Origin: an uncultured Staphylococcaceae bacterium
Lineage (GTDB): Bacteria > Bacillota_I > Bacilli_A > ML615J-28 > CAG-313
Reading direction: 5' to 3'
NCBI GenBank assembly: GCA_964541525.1
Contig: CAZIQF010000001.1
Span: forward strand, 90,553-154,552
DNA: 64,000 nucleotides
The notes beneath the pieces were generated by a model. That model ran no database searches. It had not been told where the DNA came from and saw only the letters and a program-made list of their open reading frames with translations. Of this stretch, positions 4,627-60,584 are shown in pieces (position 1 is the stretch's first letter; the number at the start of each line of letters is the position of its first letter). Both the position numbers and the translations under genes were made by a program.

Positions 4627-4627
4627 T

Positions 4628-11337: not shown

Positions 11338-11348
11338 TTTATCTTTTC

Positions 11349-12521
11349 CTAAAAATAACTAACTTTTATTCTTTTTCCCATTGCTTTTAAGTATTTTGTT
11401 AGTTCTTCAACAAGATTCATTTTAATACTAAAGTTGATTGGCAAATCGGGATTTTGGTGAGCTGGATTAATGGCTCGACCAACATAGAAATTAATATCAG
11501 TTGCTTCTTCAAATAAGATTCTTGATATTAATGATGCTCCATCTTTTTTATAGCACCAGATATTATATAATTTATTTTCTTCCGTATAATCTTTAGCATA
11601 TTCAACAACACGGTTCATGGTAATCACACCTTCAGTTACTAAGTCTACACCTTCAATTTTTGCAATCGGTGGCATATCACTATCTTCAAAAGATAATGTT
11701 GCTTCAACTTTTTTACCTAGGTATTTAGCTGCGATTGATGATGTTGTACCTCCACATACAATATGTTTACCTTCTTTTGCGAAGAATAATGCCATCATTC
11801 TATTTCCATCATTTTTATCTGATGAAGGCCCAAATAAGATATTGACTGGTTCACGCTTTCTAATTTTAATGACACAAGCAGTTGCATCATCTCCTGGTTC
11901 AAAACCATATAGTTTATTACATTCATCAATTAACATTGTTGACATCGTCTTAGCTGTATAACCACCAGCATTAATGCTAACTAAAAACTCAGCGATATCT
12001 TCAATTTTCCATCCGAAATTATAAGCAATCCCAATACCAGCATGAGGACAACCATCACTCATTGTAATGATGGCATCTCCTTCTTCTAAATTGATGATTG
12101 ATTTGATAATTTTTTTGCCACCCATAATCAATTCTTGTTTTGGATAATCATAAATTTCATTATTTCTAATAAATAAAATTTGGGGATTGTCATACTGAAT
12201 TAATTCTGCTTGTTCATTATCTTTAATATGAATAATGGAAAATGTTGAATAGGCAACACCACGAACCGAACAAATTGGTAAAGTTGCAGCAATCGTATCA
12301 ACACATGATTCAAGTGATAATCCTGCAGATAACATTGTTGAAATAATCTTTGATGTTAGTGTTGATAAAATACTTGCTTTTACACCACTACCTAATCCAT
12401 CTGCTAGAACTACAATTGTTGAACCATCTGGCTGTTCAACAACATCAATGTGATCACCACATAGTTCCTCGCCATAATGGTTGACACTTTTAAAGCCAAT
12501 ATCAGCACATAGATTATTCAT
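11349..12521 (-). CDS. PP2C-family Ser/Thr phosphatase (SpoIIE/RsbU-like, HfsC-like)
   Basis: 'VLADGLGSGVKAS', 'ITMSDGCPHAG', 'GDDATACVIKI'. Start overlaps the HydS stop by 8 nt. Confidence 0.8.
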   Translation of the reverse strand: MNNLCADIGFKSVNHYGEELCGDHIDVVEQPDGSTIVVLADGLGSGVKASILSTLTSKIISTMLSAGLSLESCVDTIAATLPICSVRGVAYSTFSIIHIKDNEQAELIQYDNPQILFIRNNEIYDYPKQELIMGGKKIIKSIINLEEGDAIITMSDGCPHAGIGIAYNFGWKIEDIAEFLVSINAGGYTAKTMSTMLIDECNKLYGFEPGDDATACVIKIRKREPVNILFGPSSDKNDGNRMMALFFAKEGKHIVCGGTTSSIAAKYLGKKVEATLSFEDSDMPPIAKIEGVDLVTEGVITMNRVVEYAKDYTEENKLYNIWCYKKDGASLISRILFEEATDINFYVGRAINPAHQNPDLPINFSIKMNLVEELTKYLKAMGKRIKVSYF

Positions 12522-14196: not shown

Positions 14197-14206
14197 ATTT
14201 AACCTC

Positions 14207-14458
14207 TTATTTTAATTTAGGAGCAATAACTTCCTCCCAAAATTTTTCTATAGTTAATGGGGTAATGCCCGGATAAACGCAATCATCTACGATAATTGTT
14301 ACACCATTACGATTGCATTTACCCGCACAAAAACTTCCTGATAAGATGATTTGATCATCTAATGCTTCTTTTTCAATTCTCTTGTTTAAATATTCAACGA
14401 TTTCTGGAGAATTCTTTAAAAAACATGAACTTCCAATACAGACTTTAATTTCAATCAT
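14207..14458 (-). CDS. thioredoxin-like [2Fe-2S] ferredoxin (HfsA/NuoE-like)
   Basis: 83 aa with a C-x4-C ... C-x3-C pattern ('CIGSSC', 'CAGKC'). Confidence 0.6.
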   Translation of the reverse strand: MIEIKVCIGSSCFLKNSPEIVEYLNKRIEKEALDDQIILSGSFCAGKCNRNGVTIIVDDCVYPGITPLTIEKFWEEVIAPKLK

Positions 14459-14459
14459 A

Positions 14460-14705
14460 TTATTGAAGTTTTGCTAGAACATTTTTTTCAAAGAATTCAT
14501 TTACATTTTCCACATTTACGGAAAAGAATTCTTCTCCAACTTTAACGCAAACACCTTCTTGGCATCTACCCATACAGAATGTTCCACCTAATTCAACTTT
14601 ATCACTTAAATTATTTTTTGAAATCAAATATTGAATTTGTTCTACAACTTGTCTTGAACCTTTAATATGACAAGAACTTCCAATACATACTGTTATTTTA
14701 ATCAT
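14460..14705 (-). CDS. thioredoxin-like [2Fe-2S] ferredoxin (paralogue of 14207..14458)
   Basis: 81 aa with 'CIGSSC' and 'CMGRC'. Tandem duplicate 1 nt upstream of its paralogue. Confidence 0.6.
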   Translation of the reverse strand: MIKITVCIGSSCHIKGSRQVVEQIQYLISKNNLSDKVELGGTFCMGRCQEGVCVKVGEEFFSVNVENVNEFFEKNVLAKLQ

Positions 14706-14725
14706 TTTAATCTAATTCCTTTCTT

Positions 14726-15481
14726 CTATTCGTAATCAACGACATTAGCCCAAGATAATAAGAATTCTCTTTCTTTTTCATTACCTTTAACCGATTGAGA
14801 TACTGCAACAATTGGTAACCATCTTTGAACATCTTTCTTTAAGTGATTACTCTTATCACAATATAAGTTTAAATATTTATCAGCAGTTGAAATATCACCG
14901 GCTAACCAGAATAATAGATATGTTCTAGCTGCATCAGCACATGGATTACCTTGAGTAGCATGTGACCAGTCAATGATATAAGCTTTACCATCTTTACCAA
15001 TAATAATATTTGAAGGGTTAAAGTCACCATGACATACCGATGATCCTTTAGGCATACTTTCAAGTCTTGTATGTAAGTCATATTTTGTTGTTGGTGAAAC
15101 ATTAGCAATACTAATTTTTTGAGTAAATTTATCTTTTAATTTTGTTAATAATGGACTCTTATTGCTTTGAACCATAATTTGTAATTCAACAAATTGTTCT
15201 AAATATTCATCCTTTTGTTCTGGATGTTTTTCCATTAATGCAGCAAGTGTATCACCTTCAATATATTCAGTAATAATTGCCCATTTTCCTTCAACAGTTT
15301 CAATTGATTTAATCTTTGGTACATTGATTGTTAATTCTTCAACACGTGCTTGATTTAAAGCTTCATTTAAAATATCAGCTTTTGAATAGTCTGCATTGAA
15401 TAATTTAATACAATTATCATTATCTTTATAAACAGTTTTAGCGTTTCTAATCGCAATAATTTTTTCAAGATTCATTATCAT
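14726..15481 (-). CDS. APH/choline-kinase-fold phosphotransferase (putative protein kinase)
   Basis: Brenner motif 'HGDFNPSNIII' and 'IIDWSHA' (catalytic and metal-binding Asp). 251 aa. Confidence 0.6.
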   Translation of the reverse strand: MIMNLEKIIAIRNAKTVYKDNDNCIKLFNADYSKADILNEALNQARVEELTINVPKIKSIETVEGKWAIITEYIEGDTLAALMEKHPEQKDEYLEQFVELQIMVQSNKSPLLTKLKDKFTQKISIANVSPTTKYDLHTRLESMPKGSSVCHGDFNPSNIIIGKDGKAYIIDWSHATQGNPCADAARTYLLFWLAGDISTADKYLNLYCDKSNHLKKDVQRWLPIVAVSQSVKGNEKEREFLLSWANVVDYE

Positions 15482-15492
15482 TACCTCGTTTC

Positions 15493-18183
15493 CTATTTAT
15501 TTTTACGATAAAGATTTTTGAAATCATTATCTTCTTCTTTATTAACTACACATTGAGCTGGAACTTCTTTTTCAATAAAAGTTTTTCCATAATAAGCATT
15601 TAAGTACATTTGTTTGATTTCACTCATTAATGGATATCTAGGATTAGCACCTGTACATTGATCATCAAATGCTTGTTCAACCATTTCATCTAATGAACTC
15701 ATGAATACTGCTTCATCTGCTACATAATCTTTGATTGTAGATTTGATTCCAACTTTAGCTTTTAGTTCATCAATCGCTTTAATTAGATTTTCGACTTTTT
15801 CCTCATTTGTTGATCCACCTAAACCTAAATGAGTAGCAATTTCAGCATATCTTGCCATTGTATGAGGATGATCATATTGGGAGAATGTTCCCATCTTATG
15901 TGGAACATCTGATGCATTAAATCTAATTACTTCATCAATCATTAAAGCATTAGCAACACCATGAGGAATATGATGGAATGCACCTAATTTATGAGCCATT
16001 GAGTGACATACACCTAAGAAGGCATTAGCGAAAGCCATACCTGCCATAGTAGCTGCATTAGCCATTTTTTCTCTTGCAACAGGATTATTTTGACCATCTT
16101 CATAAGCAACTGGTAACCATTCAAAAATAATTTTTAAAGCACCTAAAGCTAAACTATCTGTATATTCAGTTGCAAGCATTGAAGCATATGCTTCGACTGC
16201 ATGAGTTACAGCATCAATACCAGATGCAGCAGTTAAACCTCTAGGAGCAGTCATATGGAAATCTGCATCAACAATGGCCATATTAGGTAATAATTCATAA
16301 TCAGCAAGTGGATATTTGATACCAGTAGTTTCATCAGTAATTACTGCAAATGGAGTAACTTCTGAACCTGTACCAGCTGATGTTGGAATTGCAATAAAGT
16401 ATGCTTTTTCACCCATCTTAGGGAAAGTATAGATACGTTTTCTAATATCCATGAAACGCATAGCCATATCCATAAAGTCTACTTCTGGATGTTCATATAA
16501 TACCCACATAATCTTAGCAGCATCCATTGCTGAACCACCACCTAATGCAATAATACAATCAGGTTTGAATGAAGCCATTTGTTCAGCACCTTTTTTAGCA
16601 CAAGCTAGTGTTGGATCTGGTTCAACATCATAGAACACAGCACTTTCGATATTTAATTCTTTTAATTTGTTAATAATTGGCGTAGCATGTCCGTGTGTAT
16701 ATAAGAAATTATCTGTAACAATAAATGCACGTTTTTTATTCATCACAGTCTTTAATTCATTTAAGGCAACAGGCATACAACCTTTCTTTAAGTAAACTTT
16801 TTCTGGAGCTCTAAACCAAAGCATATTTTCCCTTCTTTCTGCAACTGTTTTAATATTGATTAAGTGTTTTACACCAACATTTTCTGATACACTATTTCCA
16901 CCCCAAGAACCACAACCAAGAGTTAGTGATGGTGCAAGTTTAAAGTTGTAAATATCACCGATACCACCTTGTGATGATGGTGTGTTTACTAAAATACGAC
17001 ATGTTTTCATGCGAGCTGCAAATTCATTAAGTTTATCTTGTTCAGTTAATTCATTAATATAAATTGATGAAGTATGTCCATATCCACCATCAGCAATTAA
17101 TTGTTCAGCTTTACTAAATGCATCTTTAATTGATTTAGCTTTATACATTGCAAGTACTGGTGATAATTTTTCATGAGCAAATTCTTCACTTAATTCAACT
17201 GAAGAAACTTCACCAATTAATACTTTTGTACCTTCTGGAACACTAACGCCAGCGATAGCAGCAATTTTAGCTGCAGGTTGACCAACAATTTTAGCGTTTA
17301 ATGAACCATTAATAATAATTGTTTTTCTTACTTTATTTAATTCATTATCATTTAGGAAGTAACAACCACGAGCAGCAAATTCATATTTAACTGCATCGTA
17401 AACATTTTTATGAACAATTACTGATTGTTCAGATGCACAAATCATCCCATTATCAAAAGTTTTTGAATGAATAATTGAGTTTACTGCAAGAATAATATCA
17501 GCAGTTTCATCGATAATTGCAGGAGTATTACCAGCACCTACACCAATTGCAGGTTTACCTGAAGAGTAAGCAGCTTTTACCATCCCTGGGCCACCAGTTG
17601 CAAGAATAATATCGGCTTCTTTCATTACTGTATTAGTAAGTTCTAGACTAGGAACATCAATCCAACCAATGATTCCTTCGGGAGCACCAGCTTTAACAGC
17701 AGCTTCTAAAACAATTTTAGCAGCAGCAATTGTTGAATTCTTAGCACGTGGATGTGGACTAATGATGATTGCATTTCTTGTTTTTAATGCAAGTAAAGCT
17801 TTAAAGATCGCAGTTGAAGTTGGATTTGTAGTAGGAATAACGGCAGCAACAACACCGATTGGTTCAGCAATTTTCTTAATTCCATAAGCTTTATCTTCTT
17901 CAATAACACCACAAGTGATAGTATCACGGTATTGATTATAAATATATTCAGATGCATAGTGATTTTTAATAACTTTATCTTCGACAACACCCATTCCTGT
18001 TTCTTCAACAGCAAGTTTTGCAAGCGAGATACGAGCATTATTTGCAGCAAGTGAAGCTGCTAAAAAGATTTTGTCTACTTCTTCTTGAGTATAAGTAGCA
18101 TATTTACATTGAGCTTTTCTTAAATTTTCTAATTTTTTTGATAAACTTTCTAAGCTATCTACAATATCATAATTTTTGTTCAT
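15493..18183 (-). CDS. adhE: bifunctional acetaldehyde-CoA / alcohol dehydrogenase
   Basis: ~895 aa with ALDH and Fe-ADH halves. Preferred start ATG at 18183 ('MNKNYD') with AGGAGA 7 nt upstream. The ORF track has an N-terminal over-extension to 18201. Confidence 0.9.
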   Translation of the reverse strand: MNKNYDIVDSLESLSKKLENLRKAQCKYATYTQEEVDKIFLAASLAANNARISLAKLAVEETGMGVVEDKVIKNHYASEYIYNQYRDTITCGVIEEDKAYGIKKIAEPIGVVAAVIPTTNPTSTAIFKALLALKTRNAIIISPHPRAKNSTIAAAKIVLEAAVKAGAPEGIIGWIDVPSLELTNTVMKEADIILATGGPGMVKAAYSSGKPAIGVGAGNTPAIIDETADIILAVNSIIHSKTFDNGMICASEQSVIVHKNVYDAVKYEFAARGCYFLNDNELNKVRKTIIINGSLNAKIVGQPAAKIAAIAGVSVPEGTKVLIGEVSSVELSEEFAHEKLSPVLAMYKAKSIKDAFSKAEQLIADGGYGHTSSIYINELTEQDKLNEFAARMKTCRILVNTPSSQGGIGDIYNFKLAPSLTLGCGSWGGNSVSENVGVKHLINIKTVAERRENMLWFRAPEKVYLKKGCMPVALNELKTVMNKKRAFIVTDNFLYTHGHATPIINKLKELNIESAVFYDVEPDPTLACAKKGAEQMASFKPDCIIALGGGSAMDAAKIMWVLYEHPEVDFMDMAMRFMDIRKRIYTFPKMGEKAYFIAIPTSAGTGSEVTPFAVITDETTGIKYPLADYELLPNMAIVDADFHMTAPRGLTAASGIDAVTHAVEAYASMLATEYTDSLALGALKIIFEWLPVAYEDGQNNPVAREKMANAATMAGMAFANAFLGVCHSMAHKLGAFHHIPHGVANALMIDEVIRFNASDVPHKMGTFSQYDHPHTMARYAEIATHLGLGGSTNEEKVENLIKAIDELKAKVGIKSTIKDYVADEAVFMSSLDEMVEQAFDDQCTGANPRYPLMSEIKQMYLNAYYGKTFIEKEVPAQCVVNKEEDNDFKNLYRKNK

Positions 18184-18197
18184 AATATTTCTCCTAT

Positions 18198-18818
18198 TCA
18201 ATTATTATTTATTTCGATTGATAAAATTGCTAATGATGCCGCAATATCAATATTTCTTACTTTGACATCATCATTAACAATTAATTTCTGATTTGTAAAA
18301 TTTAAAATACCTTTAATCCCAACTGCTGTAACTTGATCACATACGCTTTGAGCAACATCAGCTGGAACTGCTAAAATAGCAATTTTAACTTTACTAAAAT
18401 TTGTTAATTCATCAATTGATAAAATTGGATGATTATTGATTGACTTACCAATTAATGATTCATCATTATCAAACAATCCCACTATGCTAAACCTGTTTTC
18501 TTCAAATCCATCATACATTGCGAGGGCTTTACCAATTTTACCAGCACCGATAATAACTACATCGTTTGTCCCAGATTGACCAATAAGTGTATCGATTTTA
18601 GTCTTTAAATCCGTTACATAATACCCAATTTTAGGTTTACCATTACCAGCAATTAAGTTAAGATCTTTTCTTACCTGCACTTCACCTAATCCTAAGTCCA
18701 TTGCTAATTTGGTCGATGAGATCATTTCAATCTGCTTTTTCTCTAAACATTTCAAATAATTGGCATAAAGCGGTATTCTTTCAATGACTGATTTAGGAAT
18801 ATTTTTGTTACTATTCAT
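18198..18818 (-). CDS. rex: redox-sensing transcriptional repressor Rex
   Basis: Winged-helix N-terminus and Rossmann 'VVIIGAGKIGKAL'. The ORF track start at 18836 is GTG; the ATG at 18818 with AGGAAG RBS is preferred. Stop lies 14 nt before the adhE start. Confidence 0.85.
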   Translation of the reverse strand: MNSNKNIPKSVIERIPLYANYLKCLEKKQIEMISSTKLAMDLGLGEVQVRKDLNLIAGNGKPKIGYYVTDLKTKIDTLIGQSGTNDVVIIGAGKIGKALAMYDGFEENRFSIVGLFDNDESLIGKSINNHPILSIDELTNFSKVKIAILAVPADVAQSVCDQVTAVGIKGILNFTNQKLIVNDDVKVRNIDIAASLAILSIEINNN

Positions 18819-18881
18819 TACGCATCTTCCTTTCACACTAATAGTATATCATAATAAAATATAAATGTAAAATATAAAAAA

Positions 18882-34006: not shown

Positions 34007-35275
34007 TTATTTTTCCTGATTGGATGATGCTTTTTTAAAGATTGCTTCCGTTGCAAAATGAAGTTTCGTTAATACATTCGGATTATTCAATGGAAAAACA
34101 AAATAAGTATCTTCCATTGTCGCAATATCTATTGCATCTCCACGTCCCTTATAATTATATTCAATATGAAGTGATGCAGTTGATACCGCTGGTTTGAATA
34201 AACTAAATTCAGAACCATCATCTAATGTTCCTTCCAATCTGATTCCTTCTAATGACTGTTTCATTTTTACAACACCAATTCGAACAAATCCTTTTTTCGA
34301 ATTAACCAATCGTTCAATTCTGACATCATCTTCAAAATAGTAAGTTCCTTCATCAACTGCATGATTGACAACTGATCTTTGCCACAAATACCATGAAGGA
34401 ATATGTGATAAGTTTTCATCCCATTTTTGATCTTCGTTTAGTAAATGTAGACGAGAATATTCGTCCATATCCCATTTTGCATGACAATCTAAACATTCTA
34501 AGTAGTGATCATAACTAGTCATTTTTTGTTCAGTTCCACAACATGGACATTTATATAAAATTTTATGAAGATTTGTTGCACGATCATGATCAGTTATCTT
34601 GATCTTATTATCATATTGCCACTTGTAATCATCATAGATAAAAGCTTTTTCAATCCGTTCTTGGATTTCATCTGCTGATATACTTAATACTTCTTCTTTT
34701 GTTACAACTTGTATAAAGTCTGCTTCACATCTGAATCCTTTACGATAAGGATGTTTATTCCACTGCGGAGAACGAATAAATGTTCCTTTTTGATTAATCA
34801 CCACTACTGGTACTTTACATAATTTTGCAAACTTACCTAGAGCTTTACCAATATCTTCATTAATCCCCGCAAGCGTAAATCTAGCTTCCGGATAAATTAC
34901 AACATTACATTTTAATTTGTGTAAAGCATTGTAGCAATTTCTGATTAACACTGTATCTTTAGTAAATTTGCGTTTAGGAATACAGCCGATATGACGCATT
35001 AGCCATTCGCGGCCGTTAAACTCTTCAATTGATGTTACCCAACAATTTTTTTGTGGTTTATTGGCTTTGATTAGATTTGCAAAATCAACAAAAGATGCAT
35101 GATTTGCAAGTACTAAATACGGTGGTTTTAAGCCTTGACAATTAATTTTATTTATTTTTGTTCTAGTTCCAAATATTCCTGAAAACCACCAAGCACCAAT
35201 CCATTCAATTGGCAATAGATACCAACTTGGTTTTTGGATTTTTTTATGTAATTCAAATTCTTTTTCTTCTTTCAT
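34007..35275 (-). CDS. PlsC-like acyltransferase with C-terminal zinc-ribbon domain
   Basis: HX4D motif 'NHASFVD'. 'CPCCG...CLDC' zinc ribbon. Confidence 0.55.
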   Translation of the reverse strand: MKEEKEFELHKKIQKPSWYLLPIEWIGAWWFSGIFGTRTKINKINCQGLKPPYLVLANHASFVDFANLIKANKPQKNCWVTSIEEFNGREWLMRHIGCIPKRKFTKDTVLIRNCYNALHKLKCNVVIYPEARFTLAGINEDIGKALGKFAKLCKVPVVVINQKGTFIRSPQWNKHPYRKGFRCEADFIQVVTKEEVLSISADEIQERIEKAFIYDDYKWQYDNKIKITDHDRATNLHKILYKCPCCGTEQKMTSYDHYLECLDCHAKWDMDEYSRLHLLNEDQKWDENLSHIPSWYLWQRSVVNHAVDEGTYYFEDDVRIERLVNSKKGFVRIGVVKMKQSLEGIRLEGTLDDGSEFSLFKPAVSTASLHIEYNYKGRGDAIDIATMEDTYFVFPLNNPNVLTKLHFATEAIFKKASSNQEK

Positions 35276-35432
35276 CTCTTTAATTCCTTTTGATATTATT
35301 ATACCAAAAAAATCAAAAAAATAAAGTAATTTTACTTATATCGACAATTTTTTTAAAATATTCCTTAACTAATCAAATTTTTGACTCTATAATTGTTATA
35401 GATAAAATAACTATATGATTTTTATATAGACT

Positions 35433-36107
35433 TTATTTTATATTCTCGTTTGCCATTTTTGCATAAATTTCTTCAGGTATCATTGGTGTTTTTAATTTTT
35501 CCATTGTCGATGATGAAATCATTCCATCCTTAATATATTCATATCCAGCTTTTTTTACTATTTCTAAGAATGGCATTGCTGGTGGAATATTAAAAAGTGG
35601 ACTCTCTGTTACTGTGATCATTGTATGATTATTGGGAAAACATAATTCAAATTGTTTTATTACTGCTTCAAAATTATTTTTTGAACTTGGAAAGCCGCAA
35701 CCACTAATCATGACATATTTAAGATGAGACTAATCACTTCTTCCAACATGATAATACTGATCATTTTCCTTAACCATTGTCATTTTCGATAGTGGCATAG
35801 TTCGATCTAATACTGCTTTTAGTATAGCAGGCATTCCATAACAATATAACGGAAAACTAAAAATTATGATATCACTTAATAAAATTTCTTCAAGAATTTC
35901 TTTCATATCATCATCTTAGATACACTCACCATTGTTGATCTTACAAGCAAAGTACCCTTTACAATAATTGATTTTTTTCTCATTAACATTGATAATTGTT
36001 TCTTCTATTGTAGTTGCTGTTTTCATTCCTTCTAAAAAGGCTTTAGTCAAGTGCAAAGTATCACTCTTATTTCCTTTAGGACTACCATTAAAAATTAATA
36101 CTTTCAT
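35433..36107 (-). pseudogene. flavodoxin-like NAD(P)H-dependent FMN reductase gene interrupted by two in-frame stop codons
   Basis: ORFs 35916..36152 ('MKVLIFNGSPKGNKSD...') and 35433..35711 are in the same frame. The segment between them translates as 'DDDMKEILEEILLSDIIIFSFPLYCYGMPAILKAVLDRT...'. The sequence shows an in-frame TAA at 35916..35918 and an in-frame TAG at 35731..35733. There are no frameshifts. Confidence 0.55.
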
Positions 36108-36248
36108 ATTTTTTCTCCTAATTAGTCTTTTTAATAATGTATTTAAACGCAACTTAAATCTACTATTTTTTTCGTATTTTGAAATGCCAAAAATCCTTTC
36201 TAAACTATCACCTGATTTAGTAAATAATATTAATTATTTAGATTAATC

Positions 36249-37094
36249 TTATGTTTGTTTTATCTTAGTAATTTCACTAAATTCAGTTAGATTTAAAATA
36301 TCAATAATATTTTCATTTGCATTAATAATCGATAGTGGCTTATTATTACATTTCTTTTTTAGTTTTAGAATTACTCTTAATCCAGCACTAGAAATGTAAT
36401 TCAACGCTTTGGCGTTAATAATGATACCATTATCTAAAATCTTTGCATTTGTAGCATGGTTTTCAAATTCATTAGCATTGTTTATATCAATACTTCCGAC
36501 TAAATTGATATAGGTAGTATTATTTTCATATGTGATATAGATTATATTTTTAGATTCCTTTTTTGCAAATACAGTTTCTACTTCTTGCTTAAGTTCTTGA
36601 TACATCTTTAAGTGGCTGAAACGACTAAACACTTGGATATACTCGTTGTATAACCATTCTTGTTTTTCTTTTCCGCGTTTAAACATACTCCAAATACTAT
36701 CTCCATCTCGGTTCATTGATTCATGAATATCAATGATGTTTGACAATTTATCGGCTAAGACTAACATTGCACAAGCATCATCACAATTTTCAAGAGCTTT
36801 TAATGTAGCATTTTTGCGTTCTTCCCAGGATAATGATTTATCTTCTGTATCAAACATTACTAAGCGATAAACTTCTTCACCAAATTCTTGTTTAATGGTT
36901 TCCGGTGTTACATTAGCATCTTCGATAGTGTCATGCAAAAAACCAGCTGCTACTAGTTCATCACTAGCTCCATTTTCAAGTAATTTTAAGCCGACTGATA
37001 CTGGATGCAAAATATAGGGAAGACCACCCTTTCTTACATCTTTTTGATGAGCAATACCAGCGAATTTTAAAGCTTTTATTTTTAAATCATTCAT
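36249..37094 (-). CDS. HD-domain (p)ppGpp-hydrolase-like (Rel/SpoT hydrolase, SAH-type) fused to C-terminal STAS domain
   Basis: 'ILHPVSV', 'AGFLHDTIED', 'VLADKLSNI' (HD hydrolase motifs). C-terminus 'LNYISSAGLRVILKL' (STAS phospho-serine motif). Confidence 0.7.
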   Translation of the reverse strand: MNDLKIKALKFAGIAHQKDVRKGGLPYILHPVSVGLKLLENGASDELVAAGFLHDTIEDANVTPETIKQEFGEEVYRLVMFDTEDKSLSWEERKNATLKALENCDDACAMLVLADKLSNIIDIHESMNRDGDSIWSMFKRGKEKQEWLYNEYIQVFSRFSHLKMYQELKQEVETVFAKKESKNIIYITYENNTTYINLVGSIDINNANEFENHATNAKILDNGIIINAKALNYISSAGLRVILKLKKKCNNKPLSIINANENIIDILNLTEFSEITKIKQT

Positions 37095-37097
37095 AAC

Positions 37098-38273
37098 TTA
37101 AAATGATAATTTATCAACCTTTGCAAGATTGTTTTCTAATAATTTAGTGTAGTATTCAATAAATTGTTTACCTTCTAAAGTATCTTCAGTATGATATACA
37201 TACACACGACGAAGAATTCGTACTGCTGATAAGATTTCAACTTTTCTTACTGCATCTTCAATTAATTCTTGATTATTATCAAAATAATCATTTAAGAATA
37301 AATGCCACATTTTAACAGTTGTATCATAAGATAAGCCATAAAAATCTAATGCATTTTGATGATTAAACATTGAATAACCGACAAAACTACAATAAACACT
37401 AACCAAATCGAAAATTGGATGACCAACTGATACTGTATCCATATCAATTAAAATTGGTTCATTATCACCAAACATAACATTATTTGTATGATAATCACCA
37501 TGGATTAATATTGGTAAAACTGGAATTTCTGTGATTAATTGTTCTAGTTTATCCCATAGATGATCACTAATTTTGCCTTTAATCACATTTAACCAACCAA
37601 TGCCCACTTTTTTGATTGATGGGAATTCATCTAAAGTAGCCTTTGTTTCATGGATTTTTTCTAAGAAATTAGAAAAAATATGCATATAATATTCTAATTT
37701 TTCTGGTTCTGCGATAATGCATTTAGTAATTGATTTAGCATTTAGTAATTCAACAACAGTTGCATAATATTCTCCCACTTTAACAATATCATAGGGAATA
37801 GCTGAGTTAATTCCTTTCATTAAGACTTTTCTACAAAGTTCACGTTCATTTTTAATCTCTTCAAGTGGCGAATGATTATAGAATACTTTAACAATTGTTT
37901 CAGCATCGTAACGATAAATTCTCCCCTTAGCTCCTTGTGCAATAACTTCACAACCATCTAAACTTAATTTTCTAAATGCTTTTTCAACTGTTAATAATTC
38001 AACAAACCCTGTCATATCAAAAATATTATAGATTTCATTAGAAACATTAATCACCTTTAATTCATCGACTGTCTTGCGTAATCTTAATAAAATTCGAAGA
38101 CCAGCACTTGAAATATATTCTAAAGCTTCAGCATCGATAATAAAAGCTTGTTCTAATGAATCATTAATAAGCTTTTTAATCTTTTCTTCGGCTTCATTAG
38201 CATTAGAAGCATCAATTCTTCCAATTAGTTCAATTACTAATAAATCATTTTCAATTCTACTTTTAATTTCCAT
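37098..38273 (-). CDS. N-terminal STAS domain fused to APH/choline-kinase-fold phosphotransferase
   Basis: 'LEYISSAGLRILLRL' STAS motif. 'IHGDYHTNNVMF' and 'LIDMDTV' kinase motifs. Confidence 0.7.
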   Translation of the reverse strand: MEIKSRIENDLLVIELIGRIDASNANEAEEKIKKLINDSLEQAFIIDAEALEYISSAGLRILLRLRKTVDELKVINVSNEIYNIFDMTGFVELLTVEKAFRKLSLDGCEVIAQGAKGRIYRYDAETIVKVFYNHSPLEEIKNERELCRKVLMKGINSAIPYDIVKVGEYYATVVELLNAKSITKCIIAEPEKLEYYMHIFSNFLEKIHETKATLDEFPSIKKVGIGWLNVIKGKISDHLWDKLEQLITEIPVLPILIHGDYHTNNVMFGDNEPILIDMDTVSVGHPIFDLVSVYCSFVGYSMFNHQNALDFYGLSYDTTVKMWHLFLNDYFDNNQELIEDAVRKVEILSAVRILRRVYVYHTEDTLEGKQFIEYYTKLLENNLAKVDKLSF

Positions 38274-38288
38274 ATTCTAAGCTCCTTT

Positions 38289-39941
38289 TTATTTTCGCTT
38301 GATTGCAAGCATTGTAATATCATCAAATTGTGGTGTTTCATTACAAAACTCTTCAATTGATTTTTTCATATTTTTAATTAAATCAGTTGTAGAAAGATTT
38401 GAATCTTTGTTTACTACAGCTAATATTCCTTCAATTCCAAATTGAATATTTTGATTATTGATTGCTTCAGTTACACCATCTGTATAAATCAATAAAGTTT
38501 CTCCTTTTTCTAATACAAATTCATAATTTTTATATTTCATATTTGGGAAGCATCCAATTGCTAATCCATGTTTAGTTTGATAGACTTTTGCAGTTCCATC
38601 ATTTGCTTTAATTACTGGATCTTCATGTCCCGCATTCGCACAAATAACCTTACCCGTTGATAATTCTATGATGGCAAACCAAACCGTAACAAACATATCT
38701 TCTTGGTTGTTACTTGAAATCTTATTATTTAGTGCTTCTAAAATTTTAGCCGGATCATTGATTAACGTTGCAAGATTACTTGTTAAGATTTTAGTAACCA
38801 TCATAAATAATGCGGCTGGAACCCCTTTACCTGATACATCACCAATAGTTAAAGCTAAATGATCATCATCAAGCAAGTAAAAATCGAAGTAATCGCCACC
38901 TACTTCTTTAGCAGGATGCATTAAACCAAATAAGTCAATATCTTCTCGTTCGGGAAATGGCGGAAAGACACTTGGAATCATTGTCATTTGGATTTTTGTT
39001 GCAAGATTTAATTCAGTTGCAATCCTTTCTCGTTCTGCAGTTAATTTTTCTAATAAATTAGTATTATTAACAACATCATTTTCTAAATGTTGTAGTGATC
39101 GCCAGATTGAATTAAGTTCTGTAATGCTACTAACTGATTTAACATTATCTTCAAGAACAATATTACTACTTGCGAAGCGTTTAGATTCCGTAATAATCTT
39201 TTTAACTGGATTAGAGAATTGTTTAATACAATACAAAACGCCAAAAAAGACTAAAATCGCTAGATTAGCAAAGGTTGTTAAGGTATTTTTTCTTAGAAAA
39301 CTTGATAACAAGCTATTTAATTCATTCATTTCTCTTTGAACACAAGTTATTGCAACAACATTTCCATTTGAATCAAAAACCGGCGATAGTGCCGTAATAT
39401 GTGGAGGTTTACCATTTAAATCTTTAGTTCTAGTTACTACTCCGTTTTCAATCTTTTTTTCATATAAATCTTTATAAATACTAATGTATTCATCATTACT
39501 TTCACGATGATATCCTAGTTCCCATGGCGTATAACCATAAGGGTTATCATCAATAACTGTATTGAATACCGAATAGAAATTATCATAGTTTGCTTCTTGA
39601 TCAACAACAATAACATATAGAAGCGTTATTTTTTGTTTTTGGCAAACATGATTTAAATTATCTAATATTTCTAAATATTCACTATCTTGTTTATAATAAT
39701 CAACATCAGCCAAATAATCATCAAGCATATCACCATCAATAAAATCATTAGCAGTATCAGCGGCATTAATTGCATATTCATAATATGTTTTTTTCATCGC
39801 TTCATTAATTTCAACATAACCAATCACACATGCTACTGCATTAGATAAAAGTAAAATAATGACAATAAAGAAAATAAAGCGAAAGTTAATACTATTAATT
39901 AATTTCCTGAACTTTTTCATACTACCTATTCTCGCTTTCAC
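38289..39941 (-). CDS. membrane-anchored sensor PP2C phosphatase (RsbU/SpoIIE-like) with extracytoplasmic domain
   Basis: TM1, ~190-aa periplasmic/extracellular region, TM2, then 'GGDYFDFY', 'IGDVSGKGVPAA', 'YTDGVTEA'. Overlaps the upstream kinase gene by 20 nt. Confidence 0.8.
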   Translation of the reverse strand: MKARIGSMKKFRKLINSINFRFIFFIVIILLLSNAVACVIGYVEINEAMKKTYYEYAINAADTANDFIDGDMLDDYLADVDYYKQDSEYLEILDNLNHVCQKQKITLLYVIVVDQEANYDNFYSVFNTVIDDNPYGYTPWELGYHRESNDEYISIYKDLYEKKIENGVVTRTKDLNGKPPHITALSPVFDSNGNVVAITCVQREMNELNSLLSSFLRKNTLTTFANLAILVFFGVLYCIKQFSNPVKKIITESKRFASSNIVLEDNVKSVSSITELNSIWRSLQHLENDVVNNTNLLEKLTAERERIATELNLATKIQMTMIPSVFPPFPEREDIDLFGLMHPAKEVGGDYFDFYLLDDDHLALTIGDVSGKGVPAALFMMVTKILTSNLATLINDPAKILEALNNKISSNNQEDMFVTVWFAIIELSTGKVICANAGHEDPVIKANDGTAKVYQTKHGLAIGCFPNMKYKNYEFVLEKGETLLIYTDGVTEAINNQNIQFGIEGILAVVNKDSNLSTTDLIKNMKKSIEEFCNETPQFDDITMLAIKRK

Positions 39942-40356
39942 CTAAATATTTGATAATGGTTAATTTGTTTTGTTGATTATCATATTCATATTCAATATTA
40001 TCCATTAAATTTTTTACCATATAAATCCCCAATCCACCGATTTGGCGATCAGCAAGGGGAATATTAAAGTTGGGATCTTCTTTTTCGAGTGGGTTATATT
40101 GGATTCCTTGATCGATAAATATAATTTGAATATAGTGTGGATCAATATTTGTATTAACTTCAATGATGGCATCTCCTCCATCTACAGGATATGCATATTT
40201 AGCAATGTTAACAAAGATTTCTTCTACTGCTTCTTCAATGGCAAATCTTTGTTTAAATGTACAATTTGTATCATCTAAGATATTATCAATAAATGAAATT
40301 ACATCATTGAGATTATCAATTTTAGCGTCTATTTGTAATTTTTTCATGCTAATCAT
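39922..40356 (-). CDS. anti-sigma-factor-type Ser kinase (RsbW/SpoIIAB-like GHKL ATPase)
   Basis: N-box 'EEAVEEIFVNIAKYA'. G-box 'GGLGIYMVKNL'. 144 aa. Confidence 0.8.
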   Translation of the reverse strand: MISMKKLQIDAKIDNLNDVISFIDNILDDTNCTFKQRFAIEEAVEEIFVNIAKYAYPVDGGDAIIEVNTNIDPHYIQIIFIDQGIQYNPLEKEDPNFNIPLADRQIGGLGIYMVKNLMDNIEYEYDNQQNKLTIIKYLGESENR

Positions 40357-40361
40357 CCTTT

Positions 40362-40664
40362 TTATTTTATCTTTACAATATCAATAAAGCCAGTTAAATT
40401 AAATACATCAATTATTTCATCTGATGCATTAACAATCTCAAAATTGATATTTTTTGCTTTAGTTTGCTTAACAAATAACAAAATAACTCTTAATCCAGCA
40501 CTTGAAATATATTGTAAAGAAGAAAAATCAAAGATTAAGGAACTAATCTTTTCATTAAGAATTTCTCCCATTTTCGTTTCAAGTTCAATATATGATTGAG
40601 AATCAAGTCTTCCCAATAATAAAACACGTAAACTATCATTTTCTTTTTTTAATTCAATAATCAT
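40362..40664 (-). CDS. STAS-domain anti-sigma-factor antagonist (RsbV/SpoIIAA-like)
   Basis: 'LQYISSAGLRVILLF'. 100 aa. Confidence 0.8.
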   Translation of the reverse strand: MIIELKKENDSLRVLLLGRLDSQSYIELETKMGEILNEKISSLIFDFSSLQYISSAGLRVILLFVKQTKAKNINFEIVNASDEIIDVFNLTGFIDIVKIK

Positions 40665-40698
40665 ATAATCACCCTTAAAAACAATCTTATATTAAATC

Positions 40699-40727
40699 AT
40701 TATACCAATTTTTTCTTATTTTTTCAA
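40699..40727 (-). promoter_or_regulatory. sigma-A-type promoter for the partner-switching operon
   Basis: Minus strand TTGAAA-17 nt-TATAAT with TGg extended -10. Lies ~35 nt upstream of the rsbV-like start. Confidence 0.4.
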
Positions 40728-40810
40728 TAAAAGCAATAAAAACATCTATTGATAATTCTCATCGCTAAGTCACTAGAATAAATCAAATTAAGTTTTATTT
40801 TTAATTCCAT
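40724..40810 (-). CDS. small ORF (28 aa, MELKIKLNLIYSSDLAMRIINRCFYCFY)
   Basis: GGAGG 10 nt upstream of ATG. Ends in 'CFYCFY'. Overlaps the predicted -35 element. Confidence 0.25.
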   Translation of the reverse strand: MELKIKLNLIYSSDLAMRIINRCFYCFY

Positions 40811-40974
40811 ATAAAAAATACCTCCAAAGCAAATCGTGAATAATGTTATTTTGTTTCACTATCTACTTTAGAGATATCTTCCTATTTTGATTAGTTCTTC
40901 TTTTTATTCTTTTAAGAATATTTAATGTATGTTTTTCTTAGAATCATCAAAAAGATTTTATAAAATTAAACTGC

Positions 40975-42882
40975 TTATGTATCCAAACCAGCAAATTGAG
41001 TTTGATATAAACGATTATAAACACCTTGTTTTGCAAGTAATTCTTGATGATTACCCATTTCAACAACTATTCCTTGATCAAGAACAACAATTAAATCCGC
41101 ATCTTGGATTGTTGATAAACGGTGAGCAATAATAATCGTTGTTCGGTTTTCCATTAGTTTAACTAAAGCATCTTGAATCTTCTTTTCAGTTCTTGTATCA
41201 ACTGAAGATGTAGCTTCATCGAGAATTAAGATTTTAGGATTAGCAAGAACAGCTCTTGCAATAGTTAGTAATTGTCTTTGTCCTTGAGAAAGATTAGTTG
41301 CACCTTCATTTAGAACCGTTTTTTCTTTTAATGGTAGACGATTAACAAATTTATAACAATTAGCCATCTTTAAAGCGTTATCAAATTCTTCTTGAGTTGC
41401 ATCCGCTTTTCCATATTTAACATTATTTTCAATTGTATCACCAAATAATACCGCATCTTGTAATACAATAGAAATGGCATCTCTTAAATTTTTCTTGGAC
41501 ATATCCTTAATATCCTTACCATCAATTAAAATTCGACCACTAGTTACATCATAGAAACGAAGTAATAAATTAACAATCGTTGTTTTTCCTGAACCTGTTG
41601 CTCCAACTAAAGCAATTTTGTGACCACTTCTAACATCTACGGTAAAATCTTTTAAAACTTGCTTTTCTGGTACATAACCAAATCCAACATGTTGGAAATC
41701 AATATAACCTGTTGTTTTATTTGGATCAAATTCAATTGTACCACTAAAATCTTCTACTTCTTCATTCATCATTGTAAAGACTCTTTCAGCACCTGCCATC
41801 GCTGTTAAAAGTGATGAGTATAATTGAGCAATTTCATTAATTGGTCTTGTAAATTGTTTATTTAATGTCAAGAAAGAAATAATAATTGAAACGCTAAGAT
41901 TTCCCATTACAATTGATCCACCTATACCTTTACTCATAAAGATTGCACCAAATAGACAAATTAAGAAATAACCAACATTACCGACAAAGTTCATAATCGG
42001 TCCCATTGAACCACTCCAAATTTGAGCATTGATTGCTGTTTTGCATAATGTATCTGAATATTCATTAAATTCTGCTACTGCAATATCTTGATGATTATAA
42101 GCAATAACTGTTTTACAACCAGTCACCATTTCTTCTGTTTGCGAATTTAATAAGCCTAAAATGGTTTGTTGTTTGGTAAATAGCGGTCCCATAAACTTAG
42201 ACATCACAAAAGTAACAATCAATGATAGGATAAGTGTTACAAGTGATACTAGTGTAAGTAATGGAGAAAAGACTAACATTATACATAAGCAACCAATAAT
42301 TGTTAGAATTCCTGATACTAATGATGAAATTGATTGTGATACAGCCATTGAGATATTATCAATATCATTAGTCATTCTTGACATAATATCACCATGAGCG
42401 TGTGTATCAGTATATTTTATTGGGAATTTAACAATTTTCGCAAATAAATCATTTCTTAGTTTTCTTGTCATCCCAATTGAAAGATAAGCACCAATTAATG
42501 ATGATAGGTATTGAAGCACACAATATACAATATATACAGCTGCTAATATACCAATATACAATATAATATTATTAAGGTTAGGTTCTATTTTCCAACTATT
42601 AGTTTCAATATTATATTCGCCAAAAGAAGCAATAATTTTTTGAATTATAACATTGGTTGACAAAGTGGCAGCGGTAACAAATAATACAACAATGATTAAA
42701 GAAATTAACAATCCTTTAGAAAATGAAATATAGTCAAGTAATTGTTTGAATGTTTTTCTAAAATTTTTAGGTTTTTCTTTTAATCCACCAAACCTACTTC
42801 CTGGACCATGACCATTGCCGGCTTTGATTTTTAATTCACGAAGTTTTTTATCATCTAGTTTTCTTTTACTCATTGTTGTCAC
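40975..42882 (-). CDS. ABC exporter fused permease-ATPase (ABCB type) with basic N-terminal extension
   Basis: 6-TM domain plus 'GATGSGKTT', 'LSQGQRQL', 'LILDEATSSVD'. Confidence 0.85.
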   Translation of the reverse strand: MTTMSKRKLDDKKLRELKIKAGNGHGPGSRFGGLKEKPKNFRKTFKQLLDYISFSKGLLISLIIVVLFVTAATLSTNVIIQKIIASFGEYNIETNSWKIEPNLNNIILYIGILAAVYIVYCVLQYLSSLIGAYLSIGMTRKLRNDLFAKIVKFPIKYTDTHAHGDIMSRMTNDIDNISMAVSQSISSLVSGILTIIGCLCIMLVFSPLLTLVSLVTLILSLIVTFVMSKFMGPLFTKQQTILGLLNSQTEEMVTGCKTVIAYNHQDIAVAEFNEYSDTLCKTAINAQIWSGSMGPIMNFVGNVGYFLICLFGAIFMSKGIGGSIVMGNLSVSIIISFLTLNKQFTRPINEIAQLYSSLLTAMAGAERVFTMMNEEVEDFSGTIEFDPNKTTGYIDFQHVGFGYVPEKQVLKDFTVDVRSGHKIALVGATGSGKTTIVNLLLRFYDVTSGRILIDGKDIKDMSKKNLRDAISIVLQDAVLFGDTIENNVKYGKADATQEEFDNALKMANCYKFVNRLPLKEKTVLNEGATNLSQGQRQLLTIARAVLANPKILILDEATSSVDTRTEKKIQDALVKLMENRTTIIIAHRLSTIQDADLIVVLDQGIVVEMGNHQELLAKQGVYNRLYQTQFAGLDT

Positions 42883-59400: not shown

Positions 59401-60036
59401 TTAATACGAAAAAGTGTAAGTTTTTGCCCCTTGACTATTACCATAAGTGATAGTTAATAATGGATTATTTCCTATTTCATTTGCTGAAATTGCCTTAAGA
59501 ATACCACAACTTGAATTAGAAGCAAAACGAATAATCTTTTCATCAACCTGTAAATACATGGATGAAAGATCATCAGATGCACTTTTCATTATATAAAAAT
59601 AATAATAGTTATTTATTTTTGTTTCATATTTATCATAGCCACAATAAATATATAGTGATGTATTCAGATCTAATTGAATAAAATACATCGGATTAACATC
59701 TGGTTTTTCACAATGACTCTTCATAAATGATAAATATTCTTCGGTCATCACGGCTGTATCATCTTTGACATGAAAATGTTTATCAACATAAATCGTTTCA
59801 ACATTTTTATTAAAAGTATCATTTGTAATCGTTATAAGTGTAAATGATGTGACAACTAAGATAATTATAAAAATTGATGTTAAAAAAGCGTATTTATAAT
59901 TAAAAAATTTGTTTACCTTTCTTGAAGAACGATTATCAAAAAAGTCAGTTTGCTTAATTATATCTTCAGCAGTTACACGACATTGATATTTTGATTTCAT
60001 TGCTTCAATTAATTGTTTTTCTTTATCAGCTTTCAT
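59401..60036 (-). CDS. putative single-pass anti-sigma factor
   Basis: Overlaps the sigma gene by 4 nt. Short cytoplasmic N-terminus, one TM, then ~135-aa extracytoplasmic domain. Confidence 0.45.
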   Translation of the reverse strand: MKADKEKQLIEAMKSKYQCRVTAEDIIKQTDFFDNRSSRKVNKFFNYKYAFLTSIFIIILVVTSFTLITITNDTFNKNVETIYVDKHFHVKDDTAVMTEEYLSFMKSHCEKPDVNPMYFIQLDLNTSLYIYCGYDKYETKINNYYYFYIMKSASDDLSSMYLQVDEKIIRFASNSSCGILKAISANEIGNNPLLTITYGNSQGAKTYTFSY

Positions 60037-60584
60037 TCTTGTTGATCCTTTCCTTGCAAGTATTCTTTAACAGTTTGTTCTGCTTCATTATACATTCTAC
60101 GTGCTGTTTCTGGATTTAAATTTAACATAATTGCGATATCTTTGAACGTCATTTTAAATCCAATTCGATTAACATAAATAGAATATTTGACATCCCCTAA
60201 TAGCTTTTCGATATCTTCTAACATTAAATAAATTTCCGTATTATTAAATACGATTGTTTGGTCTATACTTTCTTCTGAAAGTGTACACTTGTTCATTCTA
60301 TTGTGTTTAATTTTAATAAAATTTAATATGTAATTTCTTGATAATGATATGAACCAAGTATAAAATGATGATTCTTTTTCATTATACATATTGATTTTCT
60401 GAAGTAATCTTAAAAATATTTCTTGTGTACAATCATTTGCATCATCATAATTCTTTAAATAATGATAACAAAAATAATATATTACATCTTTGTACTCTGA
60501 AAAGATTATATTGAATGCTTCTTTGTCTCCTTCTTTTAATTCTCTGATTATTGATTTGTTTAATTTATGCATAACTTCCCTCAT
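60033..60584 (-). CDS. ECF-type sigma-70 family RNA polymerase sigma factor
   Basis: Region 2 'YTWFISLSRNYILNFIK'. Region 4 'FKDIAIMLNLNPETARRMY'. Confidence 0.8.
   Translation of the reverse strand: MREVMHKLNKSIIRELKEGDKEAFNIIFSEYKDVIYYFCYHYLKNYDDANDCTQEIFLRLLQKINMYNEKESSFYTWFISLSRNYILNFIKIKHNRMNKCTLSEESIDQTIVFNNTEIYLMLEDIEKLLGDVKYSIYVNRIGFKMTFKDIAIMLNLNPETARRMYNEAEQTVKEYLQGKDQQE

Follow-up and report, generated by a model that had tools for sequence, protein, structure and literature searches.

The stretch of DNA analysed here (the window) comprises 64,000 nucleotides (nt) from an uncultured Staphylococcaceae bacterium, positions 90,553 to 154,552 of contig CAZIQF010000001.1, and has a G+C content of about 29%. 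Open reading frame (ORF) calling places five genes within 40727-36249, all on the minus strand, which encode a solo STAS protein, a GHKL serine kinase, a membrane PP2C phosphatase and two enzymes that each carry a STAS domain of their own. One of these enzymes has an APH-type kinase fold, and the other an HD_4 domain of the small alarmone hydrolase (SAH) type. Judged from its domains and conserved residues, the cassette may be a Ser-phosphorylation partner-switching module that acts independently of sigma factors and has enzymes as its outputs, a reading to which we give a probability of about 0.55. Confidence in this and in each competing reading was judged separately, and the figures do not sum to one. 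The genes and their parts are located as follows, with protein lengths in amino acids (aa).

40699..40727, minus strand: sigma-70-like promoter, TTGAAA-17 nt-TATAAT with a TG extended -10 (11/12 matches)
40362..40664, minus strand: solo STAS protein, RsbV/SpoIIAA-like, 100 aa (Pfam STAS)
39922..40356, minus strand: RsbW/SpoIIAB-type GHKL serine kinase, 144 aa (HATPase_c_2)
38289..39920, minus strand: membrane sensor phosphatase, 543 aa from ATG 39920 or 550 aa from GTG 39941 (SpoIIE/PP2C)
39816-39884 and 39216-39284, minus strand: predicted transmembrane segments of the phosphatase (hydropathy profile)
39285..39815, minus strand: extracytoplasmic sensor domain, about 177 aa between the transmembrane segments (hydropathy, AlphaFold2 (AF2) and Foldseek)
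38295..38870, minus strand: PP2C (SpoIIE-type) catalytic domain (Pfam SpoIIE, profile positions 1-191 of 192)
37098..38273, minus strand: STAS-APH fusion, 391 aa (Pfam STAS and APH)
37980-38261, minus strand: STAS part of STAS-APH, residues 5-98 (Pfam STAS)
37101-37973, minus strand: APH-fold kinase part of STAS-APH, residues 101-391 (Pfam APH)
36249..37094, minus strand: HD_4-STAS fusion, 281 aa (Pfam HD_4 and STAS)
36567-37082, minus strand: SAH-type HD part of HD_4-STAS, residues 5-176 (Pfam HD_4)
36252-36530, minus strand: STAS part of HD_4-STAS, residues 189-281 (Pfam STAS)

The five co-directional genes are as tightly packed as a preliminary description of this DNA had stated, with intergenic gaps of 5, 1, 15 and 3 nt when the phosphatase is taken to start at ATG 39920. 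This start (MKKF...) is the one used by homologues in the alignment and by the independent gene call in the near-identical contig L006. An overlap of two of the genes, also described earlier, would need the phosphatase to start at the GTG at 39941; homologues start at ATG 39920, leaving a 1-nt gap, and the overlap is therefore not retained. The same description had placed the genes behind a single sigma-A-like promoter. Such a site is found at 40727-40699, where it is the top sigma-70-like match within 35300-41300 and plausibly serves as the operon promoter. It lies 35 nt 5′ of the first ATG (40664), with a ribosome-binding site, AAGGGTGA, between the two. An Rfam scan of 35000-41500 returned chance-level matches only, with no riboswitch or leader RNA.

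Switch proteins and membrane phosphatase

When the domain calls were checked with hidden Markov models (STAS, HATPase_c, SpoIIE, APH and HD_4), every Pfam assignment in the five proteins exceeded its gathering score. The solo STAS protein reaches 56.7 bits against Pfam STAS (cutoff 22.6, E 2.4e-15) and, at 59 bits, passes the NCBIfam ant_ant_sig cutoff of 53.45. A YISSAGLR phospho-acceptor motif is present in all three STAS domains of the cassette, with Ser55 in the solo protein, Ser56 in STAS-APH and Ser236 in HD-STAS; its second Ser presumably aligns with the phospho-acceptor in the SpoIIAA motif DSSGLG. Across related loci the acceptor Ser is invariant in 56/56 solo STAS proteins, 86/86 APH-linked STAS domains and all HD-linked ones. 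In a STAS tree, solo and enzyme-linked domains form separate clades. The 100-aa protein of the cassette groups in the solo clade of the module, and the sister group of the APH-linked clade is the HD-linked STAS of the window type.

The serine kinase, whose translation may start at Met4, matches HATPase_c_2 at 74.3 bits (cutoff 27.4, E 1.1e-20). Its N-box (E46/N50), G1 box (D82xG84) and G2 box (G107GxG110) are present and are kept in 57-60 of 60 homologues. It fails the RsbW/SpoIIAB equivalog cutoffs (NF003144, 38.2 vs 145 bits; TIGR01924, 30.7 vs 155; TIGR01925, 23.8 vs 135) and, on these sequence scores, is a distant relative of RsbW and SpoIIAB. The Pfam calls and intact motifs agree with the earlier naming of this pair as an RsbV-like STAS protein and an RsbW-like GHKL Ser kinase.

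The phosphatase is built of a first transmembrane segment, an sCache-like domain, a second transmembrane segment, a linker and the PP2C domain, with hydrophobic segments at about residues 13-35 and 213-235 of the 543-aa form in the hydropathy profile. Its SpoIIE/PP2C domain scores 174.3 bits (cutoff 25, E 3.7e-51), and the metal-binding Asp residues (in GGD, GDVSGKG, YTDG and QFDD) are invariant in 49/49 homologues. The earlier account of an RsbU-like PP2C with an extracytoplasmic domain of about 190 aa between two transmembrane helices holds, with a measured length of about 177 aa.

The AF2 model of this sensor (predicted local distance difference test, pLDDT, 88; predicted template-modelling score, pTM, 0.83) has a long N-terminal helix that leads into an alpha/beta core of PAS-like form. 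Foldseek matches it to single-Cache/PDC domains: the WalK extracellular domain, the formate sCache receptor 8py0, KinD, CitA and the periplasmic domain of Chlamydia RsbU. E-values range from 1e-6 to 1e-4 and template-modelling (TM) scores are about 0.5, with probability 1.0 for WalK, 8py0, KinD and CitA. No Pfam Cache model matches the sensor at E < 0.01, and it is, according to the model, a single-Cache/PDC domain by fold, not by sequence. The sensor forms a narrow sequence family, of which 17 homologues were found. Two Cys and a YTPWELGY motif are invariant.

Enzymes fused to STAS domains

The last gene encodes an HD_4 domain (49.7 bits, cutoff 27.2, E 4.2e-13) followed by a STAS domain (43.9 bits, E 2.2e-11). 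The HD part scores 79 bits against the N-terminal hydrolase part of the NCBIfam spoT_relA model, and its best sequence matches in the PDB have E-values of 3e-29 to 1e-15. The nearest solved structures are Listeria Lmo0812 (4yf1, E 3e-29), the SAHs 7qoe and 7qoc, MESH1 and the hydrolase domains of Rel enzymes. Compared with the SAHs Mesh1, RelH, PaSAH and Lmo0812 (4yf1, 7qoe, 7qoc, 5vxa), the domain keeps all metal-binding and catalytic residues. The H/HD/D residues that bind Mn and the catalytic ED and N residues (H30, H54, D55, E58, D59, D115 and N119) are invariant in 58/58 HD_4 proteins of the module. With HD_4 above cutoff and these residues intact, the earlier call of a STAS protein fused to a Rel/SpoT-type HD hydrolase domain is upheld, and the domain is predicted from sequence to be a (p)ppGpp-type alarmone hydrolase.

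At 281 aa and with a C-terminal STAS domain, the protein departs from the single-domain SAH format of about 180-200 aa, the format to which its HD_4 relatives in the module mostly conform (181-200 aa). To our knowledge, all known SAHs are single-domain proteins and no post-translational switch has been described for them. The HD_4 domain of the cassette, in contrast, carries a STAS domain and resides in a kinase/phosphatase operon.

The fourth gene joins a STAS domain (50.8 bits, E 1.6e-13) to an APH domain (52.3 bits, cutoff 23.2, E 8.4e-14), both above the gathering score, as expected from the earlier call of a STAS fused to an APH-fold kinase. By Foldseek, the STAS part superposes on SpoIIAA/RsbV structures with TM scores of 0.7-0.78. 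The APH residues K129, E143, H258, D260, N265 and D277, from the catalytic Lys and Glu, the HxDxxxxN loop and the metal-binding DxD, are invariant in 88/88 homologues. Sequence and profile searches of the PDB gave remote matches only, to hygromycin kinase, YtaA/CotI and choline kinase (E 1e-3 to 0.2), and neither these nor fold searches point to a substrate. The protein misses curated cutoffs (TIGR02172, 100.7 vs 228.2; APH(3′)-I, 19.8 vs 400), and there is thus no basis for labelling it an antibiotic-resistance kinase. The STAS-APH family is large, with more than 7992 sequence clusters in a set of 5.8 billion proteins.

Recurrence of the module and neighbouring genes

The five genes occur in identical order in an uncultured Coprobacillus metagenome-assembled genome (MAG; L001/L011), in a European Nucleotide Archive metagenome contig (L003) and in an uncultured Anaeroplasma MAG (L010). 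The flanks differ wholly among these loci and the window, where a MarR-family gene and two ABC exporter genes lie on the 5′ side and decayed FMN-reductase fragments and an acyltransferase gene on the 3′ side. Since the same five genes recur within unrelated flanks, the cassette is not a chance grouping. The nearest MAGs, from uncultured Anaeroplasma sp. and Coprobacillus sp., are at 72-73% identity.

STAS-APH relatives are present in at least 532 species-representative genomes, from Lachnospiraceae, Oscillospiraceae, other Clostridia, Treponemataceae, Collinsella and Erysipelotrichaceae. Cultured carriers of the module include Coprococcus catus, Flavonifractor sp. An82 and Collinsella tanakaei. 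Neighbourhoods were counted in the best 80 of the 532 STAS-APH loci, using ORFs called for this purpose and HMMs built from the domains of the window. An HD_4 gene lies directly upstream of STAS-APH on the same strand in 44/80 loci and within six genes of it in 50/80, and a solo STAS gene is near in 46/80. The co-occurrence of the fusions with RsbW and RsbU homologues, raised in the preliminary description, is found here as well, with an RsbW-type domain near STAS-APH in 48/80 loci and a PP2C in 40/80, 32 of these as a PP2C-RsbW fusion of about 940 aa. A search for a further conserved neighbour (sigma factor, transporter or synthetase) found no other family in more than 10 of the 80 loci. The association also holds in the reciprocal direction: HD_4 homologues selected by HD similarity alone (P0021 and P0033) reside in the same module, in the operons [5TMR_LYT-PP2C-RsbW][HD_4][STAS-APH]...[STAS] and [HD_4][STAS][5TMR_LYT-PP2C][RsbW][STAS-APH].

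The components are also joined to each other in several ways. A three-gene form, [sCache-type sensor-PP2C-RsbW, 666-679 aa][HD_4-STAS-APH, 574-602 aa][STAS, about 100 aa], was found in at least 17 metagenome loci, many of them human-gut contigs, when metagenomes were scanned with HD-STAS. Over its first 280 residues, this triple fusion shares 52% identity with the HD-STAS protein of the window. STAS-APH-RsbW fusions occur in three loci (L058, L061 and L068), and a Lachnospiraceae MAG (L079) has an independently derived HD_4-STAS whose STAS domain groups with the APH-linked STAS of the same locus. In an exhaustive search of 1.84 billion representatives at 50% identity, just two span HD and STAS, namely P0003 (279 aa, window type) and P0258 (574 aa, triple fusion). 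The split arrangement of the window, with STAS-APH and HD_4-STAS as separate proteins, is therefore rare, amounting to one 50%-identity cluster. These sequence comparisons show the cassette to be no unique invention, but a rare, split version of a module that is widespread in gut and rumen.

One MAG (L004, GCA_963633095.1) has an HD_4-STAS gene followed by an apparent decayed APH remnant, with the motif ‘KGCEVISRES’ in a short out-of-frame ORF, and has a transposase-like ORF on the upstream side. In this genome the triple fusion seems to be in decay, which may show a route by which a two-domain HD-STAS arises.

Other genes accompany the module in particular lineages. In L009, a 350-aa RelA_SpoT small alarmone synthetase (4044-5096), preceded by a response-regulator gene, lies directly upstream of the module, followed by STAS, 5TMR_LYT-PP2C-RsbW, an SDF symporter and STAS-APH, with no HD_4 gene listed. 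This is the only locus found in which such a synthetase adjoins the module, and it provides a second, independent link of the module to alarmone metabolism. In L008, L009, L013, L070 and others, a gene for an SDF sodium:dicarboxylate/amino-acid symporter is embedded between PP2C-RsbW and STAS-APH, which may tie the module to the uptake of amino acids or carboxylates. Three further genes extend the cluster of the triple-fusion lineage (L097, L105, L107, L112 and L133; L090): one for a CDF cation-efflux protein (about 299 aa), that of the solo STAS, and one like those of nonribosomal peptide synthetases (about 997 aa), with a single module of A-T-C domains. In L090 and L105, a PNP_UDP_1 nucleoside-phosphorylase gene comes before that of the phosphatase. 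The CDF and nucleoside-phosphorylase neighbours may hint at links to metal (Mn2+?) and to nucleosides.

Sigma factors are scarce around the module. The earlier statement that none lies in or beside the operon, the nearest being 20 kb away, stands: the sole sigma-like ORF of the window, at 60033-60584, is of the extracytoplasmic function (ECF) type (Sigma70_r2, E 1.5e-14) and lies about 19.3 kb from the promoter. Nor is any sigma gene found in or next to the operon that could be co-transcribed with it. Among related loci, 3/89 have a sigma-like ORF within about 10 kb and 86/89 have none; the queries for this search, which was sensitive but not exact, were SigF and SigB sequences and the ECF sigma of the window. 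At 59401-60584 on the minus strand, the ECF gene overlaps by 4 nt a downstream 211-aa membrane ORF with no Pfam match, which, from its position, is probably the anti-sigma factor of that ECF sigma.

Immediately 3′ of the cassette, two short minus-strand ORFs of 78 and 92 aa (35433-36152) appear to be pieces of an NAD(P)H-dependent FMN reductase gene that has decayed. The first of them matches the N-terminal part of the FMN_red/Flavodoxin_2 families. At this position, the near-identical contigs L006 and L007 likewise have just short gene calls (63, 58 and 92 aa).

Elsewhere in the window, a cluster of the sensory [FeFe]-hydrogenase type occupies 9892-18836 on the minus strand.

18198-18836, minus strand: Rex
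15493-18201, minus strand: AdhE
14726-15481, minus strand: APH/RIO-like kinase, 251 aa
14207-14705, minus strand: two thioredoxin-like 2Fe-2S proteins
12514-14196, minus strand: Fe-hydrogenase-like protein with an extra FeS domain, 560 aa
11349-12521, minus strand: SpoIIE/PP2C phosphatase, 390 aa
9892-11337, minus strand: Fe-hydrogenase, 481 aa

We take this cluster to resemble the HydS/hfs-type H2-sensing clusters of Ruminococcus and Thermoanaerobacterium. With it, the window pairs a PP2C and an APH-fold kinase for a second time, and the APH/RIO-like kinase of the cluster shares 23% identity with the kinase part of STAS-APH.

Mechanism, alternatives and precedents

Because the components cluster without a sigma gene and fuse in several combinations, enzymes rather than a sigma factor appear to be the partners of the STAS/RsbW/PP2C trio. 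The proposal in the preliminary description that enzymes replace the canonical RsbW target draws support from this sigma-free clustering and from the HD_4-STAS-APH, STAS-APH-RsbW and PP2C-RsbW fusions. In the mechanism proposed here, the RsbW-type kinase would bind and phosphorylate the YISSAGLR Ser in the solo, HD_4-fused and APH-fused STAS domains. The membrane phosphatase would strip the phosphate, with its PP2C activity set by ligand occupancy of the single-Cache-like domain. The phosphorylation state of a fused STAS domain, its capture by the kinase, or both, would then switch the attached catalytic domain, and the solo STAS would most likely compete as a partner of the kinase or buffer it. 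If Anabaena All4160 is a guide, activity probably belongs to the unphosphorylated form. An external chemical cue would thereby alter the degradation of a (p)ppGpp-type alarmone and the phosphorylation of a further substrate by the APH-fold kinase. In this scheme, we infer the phosphorylation pairs, the direction of regulation, the substrates of the HD and APH domains, the ligand and the gating by an external cue.

Several observations weigh against this mechanism. HD_4 (SAH) enzymes are promiscuous, Mesh1 acting on NADPH and some SAHs on (p)ppApp, which leaves alarmone hydrolysis uncertain. No close relative of the APH domain is characterised, and its top sequence matches in the PDB have E > 1e-4. 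The AF2 model of STAS-APH falls below pLDDT 50 in the kinase N-lobe (residues 95-177) and in the activation segment, and Foldseek returned only STAS matches plus weak APH(2″) and APH(3′) matches. HD_4 is absent from the vicinity in 30/80 STAS-APH loci, and none of HD_4, PP2C and RsbW is near in 11/80. The RsbW-like protein could also hold a distal sigma factor. In this AT-rich region promoter-like sites are at chance level (46 observed vs 41.9 expected), so that the promoter, plausible as it is, is not proven.

A doubtful but serious alternative is sequestration, in which the RsbW-like protein would bind the unphosphorylated STAS domains of the HD and APH enzymes and so inhibit them, much as an anti-sigma factor treats its sigma factor. 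Only the solo STAS would cycle and, once dephosphorylated by the sensor phosphatase, would displace the kinase and release the enzymes. This matches classical RsbV/RsbW logic and would fit the retention of a solo STAS even where the enzymes own a STAS domain, as in the window and the three-gene form. The separation of the solo and enzyme-linked clades also suits distinct roles. However, the acceptor Ser is as strictly kept in the APH-linked (86/86) and HD-linked domains, which argues that the fused domains are phosphorylated too, and STAS-APH-RsbW fusions would keep kinase and STAS permanently joined.

It is improbable that the APH domain makes and the HD domain degrades one and the same phosphorylated small molecule, perhaps a nucleotide-type compound in place of (p)ppGpp or additional to it, with STAS toggling the two in a Rel-like fashion. 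The HD_4-STAS-APH fusion would then be a Rel-like two-activity enzyme, with an APH-fold kinase as the writer in place of the RelA/SpoT nucleotidyltransferase and HD as the eraser. Both active sites are strictly conserved, HD_4 and STAS-APH are adjacent in 44/80 loci, and the triple fusion holds both in one polypeptide with a single STAS between them; most APH-fold enzymes, moreover, are O-kinases of small molecules (Pfam APH). Against this, the HD domain has its greatest similarity to ordinary SAHs and to the hydrolase domains of Rel, and the pairing of the other APH/RIO-like kinase of the window with a PP2C in the hydrogenase cluster suits a protein-kinase role. We also know of no APH-fold alarmone synthetase.

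An ordinary anti-sigma system, in which the kinase targets a sigma factor encoded elsewhere and the enzyme-fused STAS domains are extra antagonists, is very unlikely. The top named matches of the kinase are indeed RsbW and SpoIIAB, and in other bacteria a cognate sigma gene can reside outside the module. Yet the kinase falls far below the equivalog cutoffs (38 vs 145; 24 vs 135), its domain often forms a fusion with the phosphatase or with STAS-APH, 86/89 loci have no sigma gene within about 10 kb, and the only sigma factor of the window is of the ECF type and has a membrane ORF of its own downstream. A defence role, with the SAH as antidote to a toxic alarmone synthetase under CapK/CapS-like kinase/STAS control, recalls the frequent company of SAHs and toxic synthetases that has been reported (PMC9765508) and the regulation of immune operons by RsbW-like/STAS-like pairs (PMC13373217), but it is scarcely credible and was dropped, given that none of the five proteins matched in a PADLOC scan (0/5), the cassette has no synthetase, its flanks are housekeeping and transport genes that differ between genomes, and the membrane Cache sensor suggests a chemical cue from outside the cell.

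The partner-switching mechanism with enzyme outputs has relatives among known systems. The Bacillus subtilis RsbU/RsbV/RsbW-sigmaB and SpoIIE/SpoIIAA/SpoIIAB-sigmaF switches share its core trio, in which a PP2C and a GHKL Ser kinase accompany a STAS protein whose Ser can be phosphorylated. The cassette thus has the STAS Ser, the GHKL boxes and the PP2C Asp residues of the classical partner-switch class, but not its cognate sigma factor, in or near the operon. It further differs in that two of its three STAS domains are fused to enzymes and in the input of the phosphatase, a sCache domain between transmembrane segments in place of the N-domain of RsbU or the membrane domain of SpoIIE. The RsbR/RsbS/RsbT stressosome does not fit the cassette, which holds all three STAS ORFs of the window and a single GHKL kinase, and whose phosphatase has a membrane sensor instead of an RsbT-binding N-domain.

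The closest functional precedent is found in Anabaena PCC 7120, where the PP2C HenR and the RsbW-like kinases Alr3423 and All2284 control an enzyme directly, the STAS-glycosyltransferase All4160, with no sigma factor (PMC13555669, 2026). In All4160, as in the cassette proteins, the STAS domain is covalently fused to the enzyme; in All4160, its phosphorylation by the kinases and dephosphorylation by the PP2C govern enzyme function. All4160 has a glycosyltransferase output and the Anabaena genes are dispersed, whereas the cassette combines a SAH-type HD and an APH-fold kinase in one operon. It also adds a solo STAS and a Cache-type membrane sensor; the module as a whole has two or three STAS domains and a Cache or 5TMR_LYT membrane input.

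Other sigma-less switches include SiaABCD of Pseudomonas aeruginosa, whose target is the nucleotide-second-messenger enzyme SiaD (PMC8457831), SypE/SypA of Vibrio fischeri, in which SypE is a fused kinase-phosphatase (PMC10120452), and the sigma-independent CapK/CapS (PMC13373217). In SiaABCD and SypE/SypA, a small switch protein, its state set by a PP2C and a Ser kinase, acts on a target that is no sigma factor. The kinase-phosphatase fusion of SypE resembles the PP2C-RsbW fusions of cassette relatives. In SiaABCD and SypE/SypA, however, the switch protein binds its target in trans, while the cassette enzymes carry the switch domain in cis. SiaD makes c-di-GMP, whereas the cassette would presumably degrade an alarmone, and the PP2C of the window scores only 56 bits against the SiaA model (cutoff 700). 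For the sensor, a parallel is offered by RsbU of Chlamydia trachomatis, a membrane PP2C whose periplasmic Cache-type ligand-binding domain feeds RsbV/RsbW (PMC4552016, PDB 6mab). The structure 6mab is among the fold matches of the cassette sensor, but the RsbU domain is a larger double-Cache, and its proposed output is the availability of the primary sigma factor and not fused enzymes.

In the literature searched, no description of STAS-APH, HD-STAS or the five-gene module was found, apparent hits being artefacts of reference lists or word stems. The gene set is likewise nowhere described there as a standard sigma-B-type regulon, a possibility that the preliminary description had entertained. 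The module, widespread in gut bacteria, is apparently undescribed.

The small alarmone hydrolases known to us are bare catalytic domains. If the proposed mechanism is true, the module provides a testable answer to how such enzymes are regulated, a Ser-phosphorylation switch gated by an extracellular ligand and wired to an SAH, in hundreds of gut and rumen species that include cultured ones. It would extend sigma-independent partner switches from targets bound in trans to enzyme domains fused in cis, and it offers a functional handle on the large uncharacterised family of STAS-APH kinases. Should the APH and HD domains instead write and erase a common molecule, improbable as this is, the module would represent a new alarmone-like signalling route common in gut Clostridia. 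If the cue sensed by the phosphatase is a nutrient, the module would couple the chemistry of the gut lumen to the start or the end of the stringent response.

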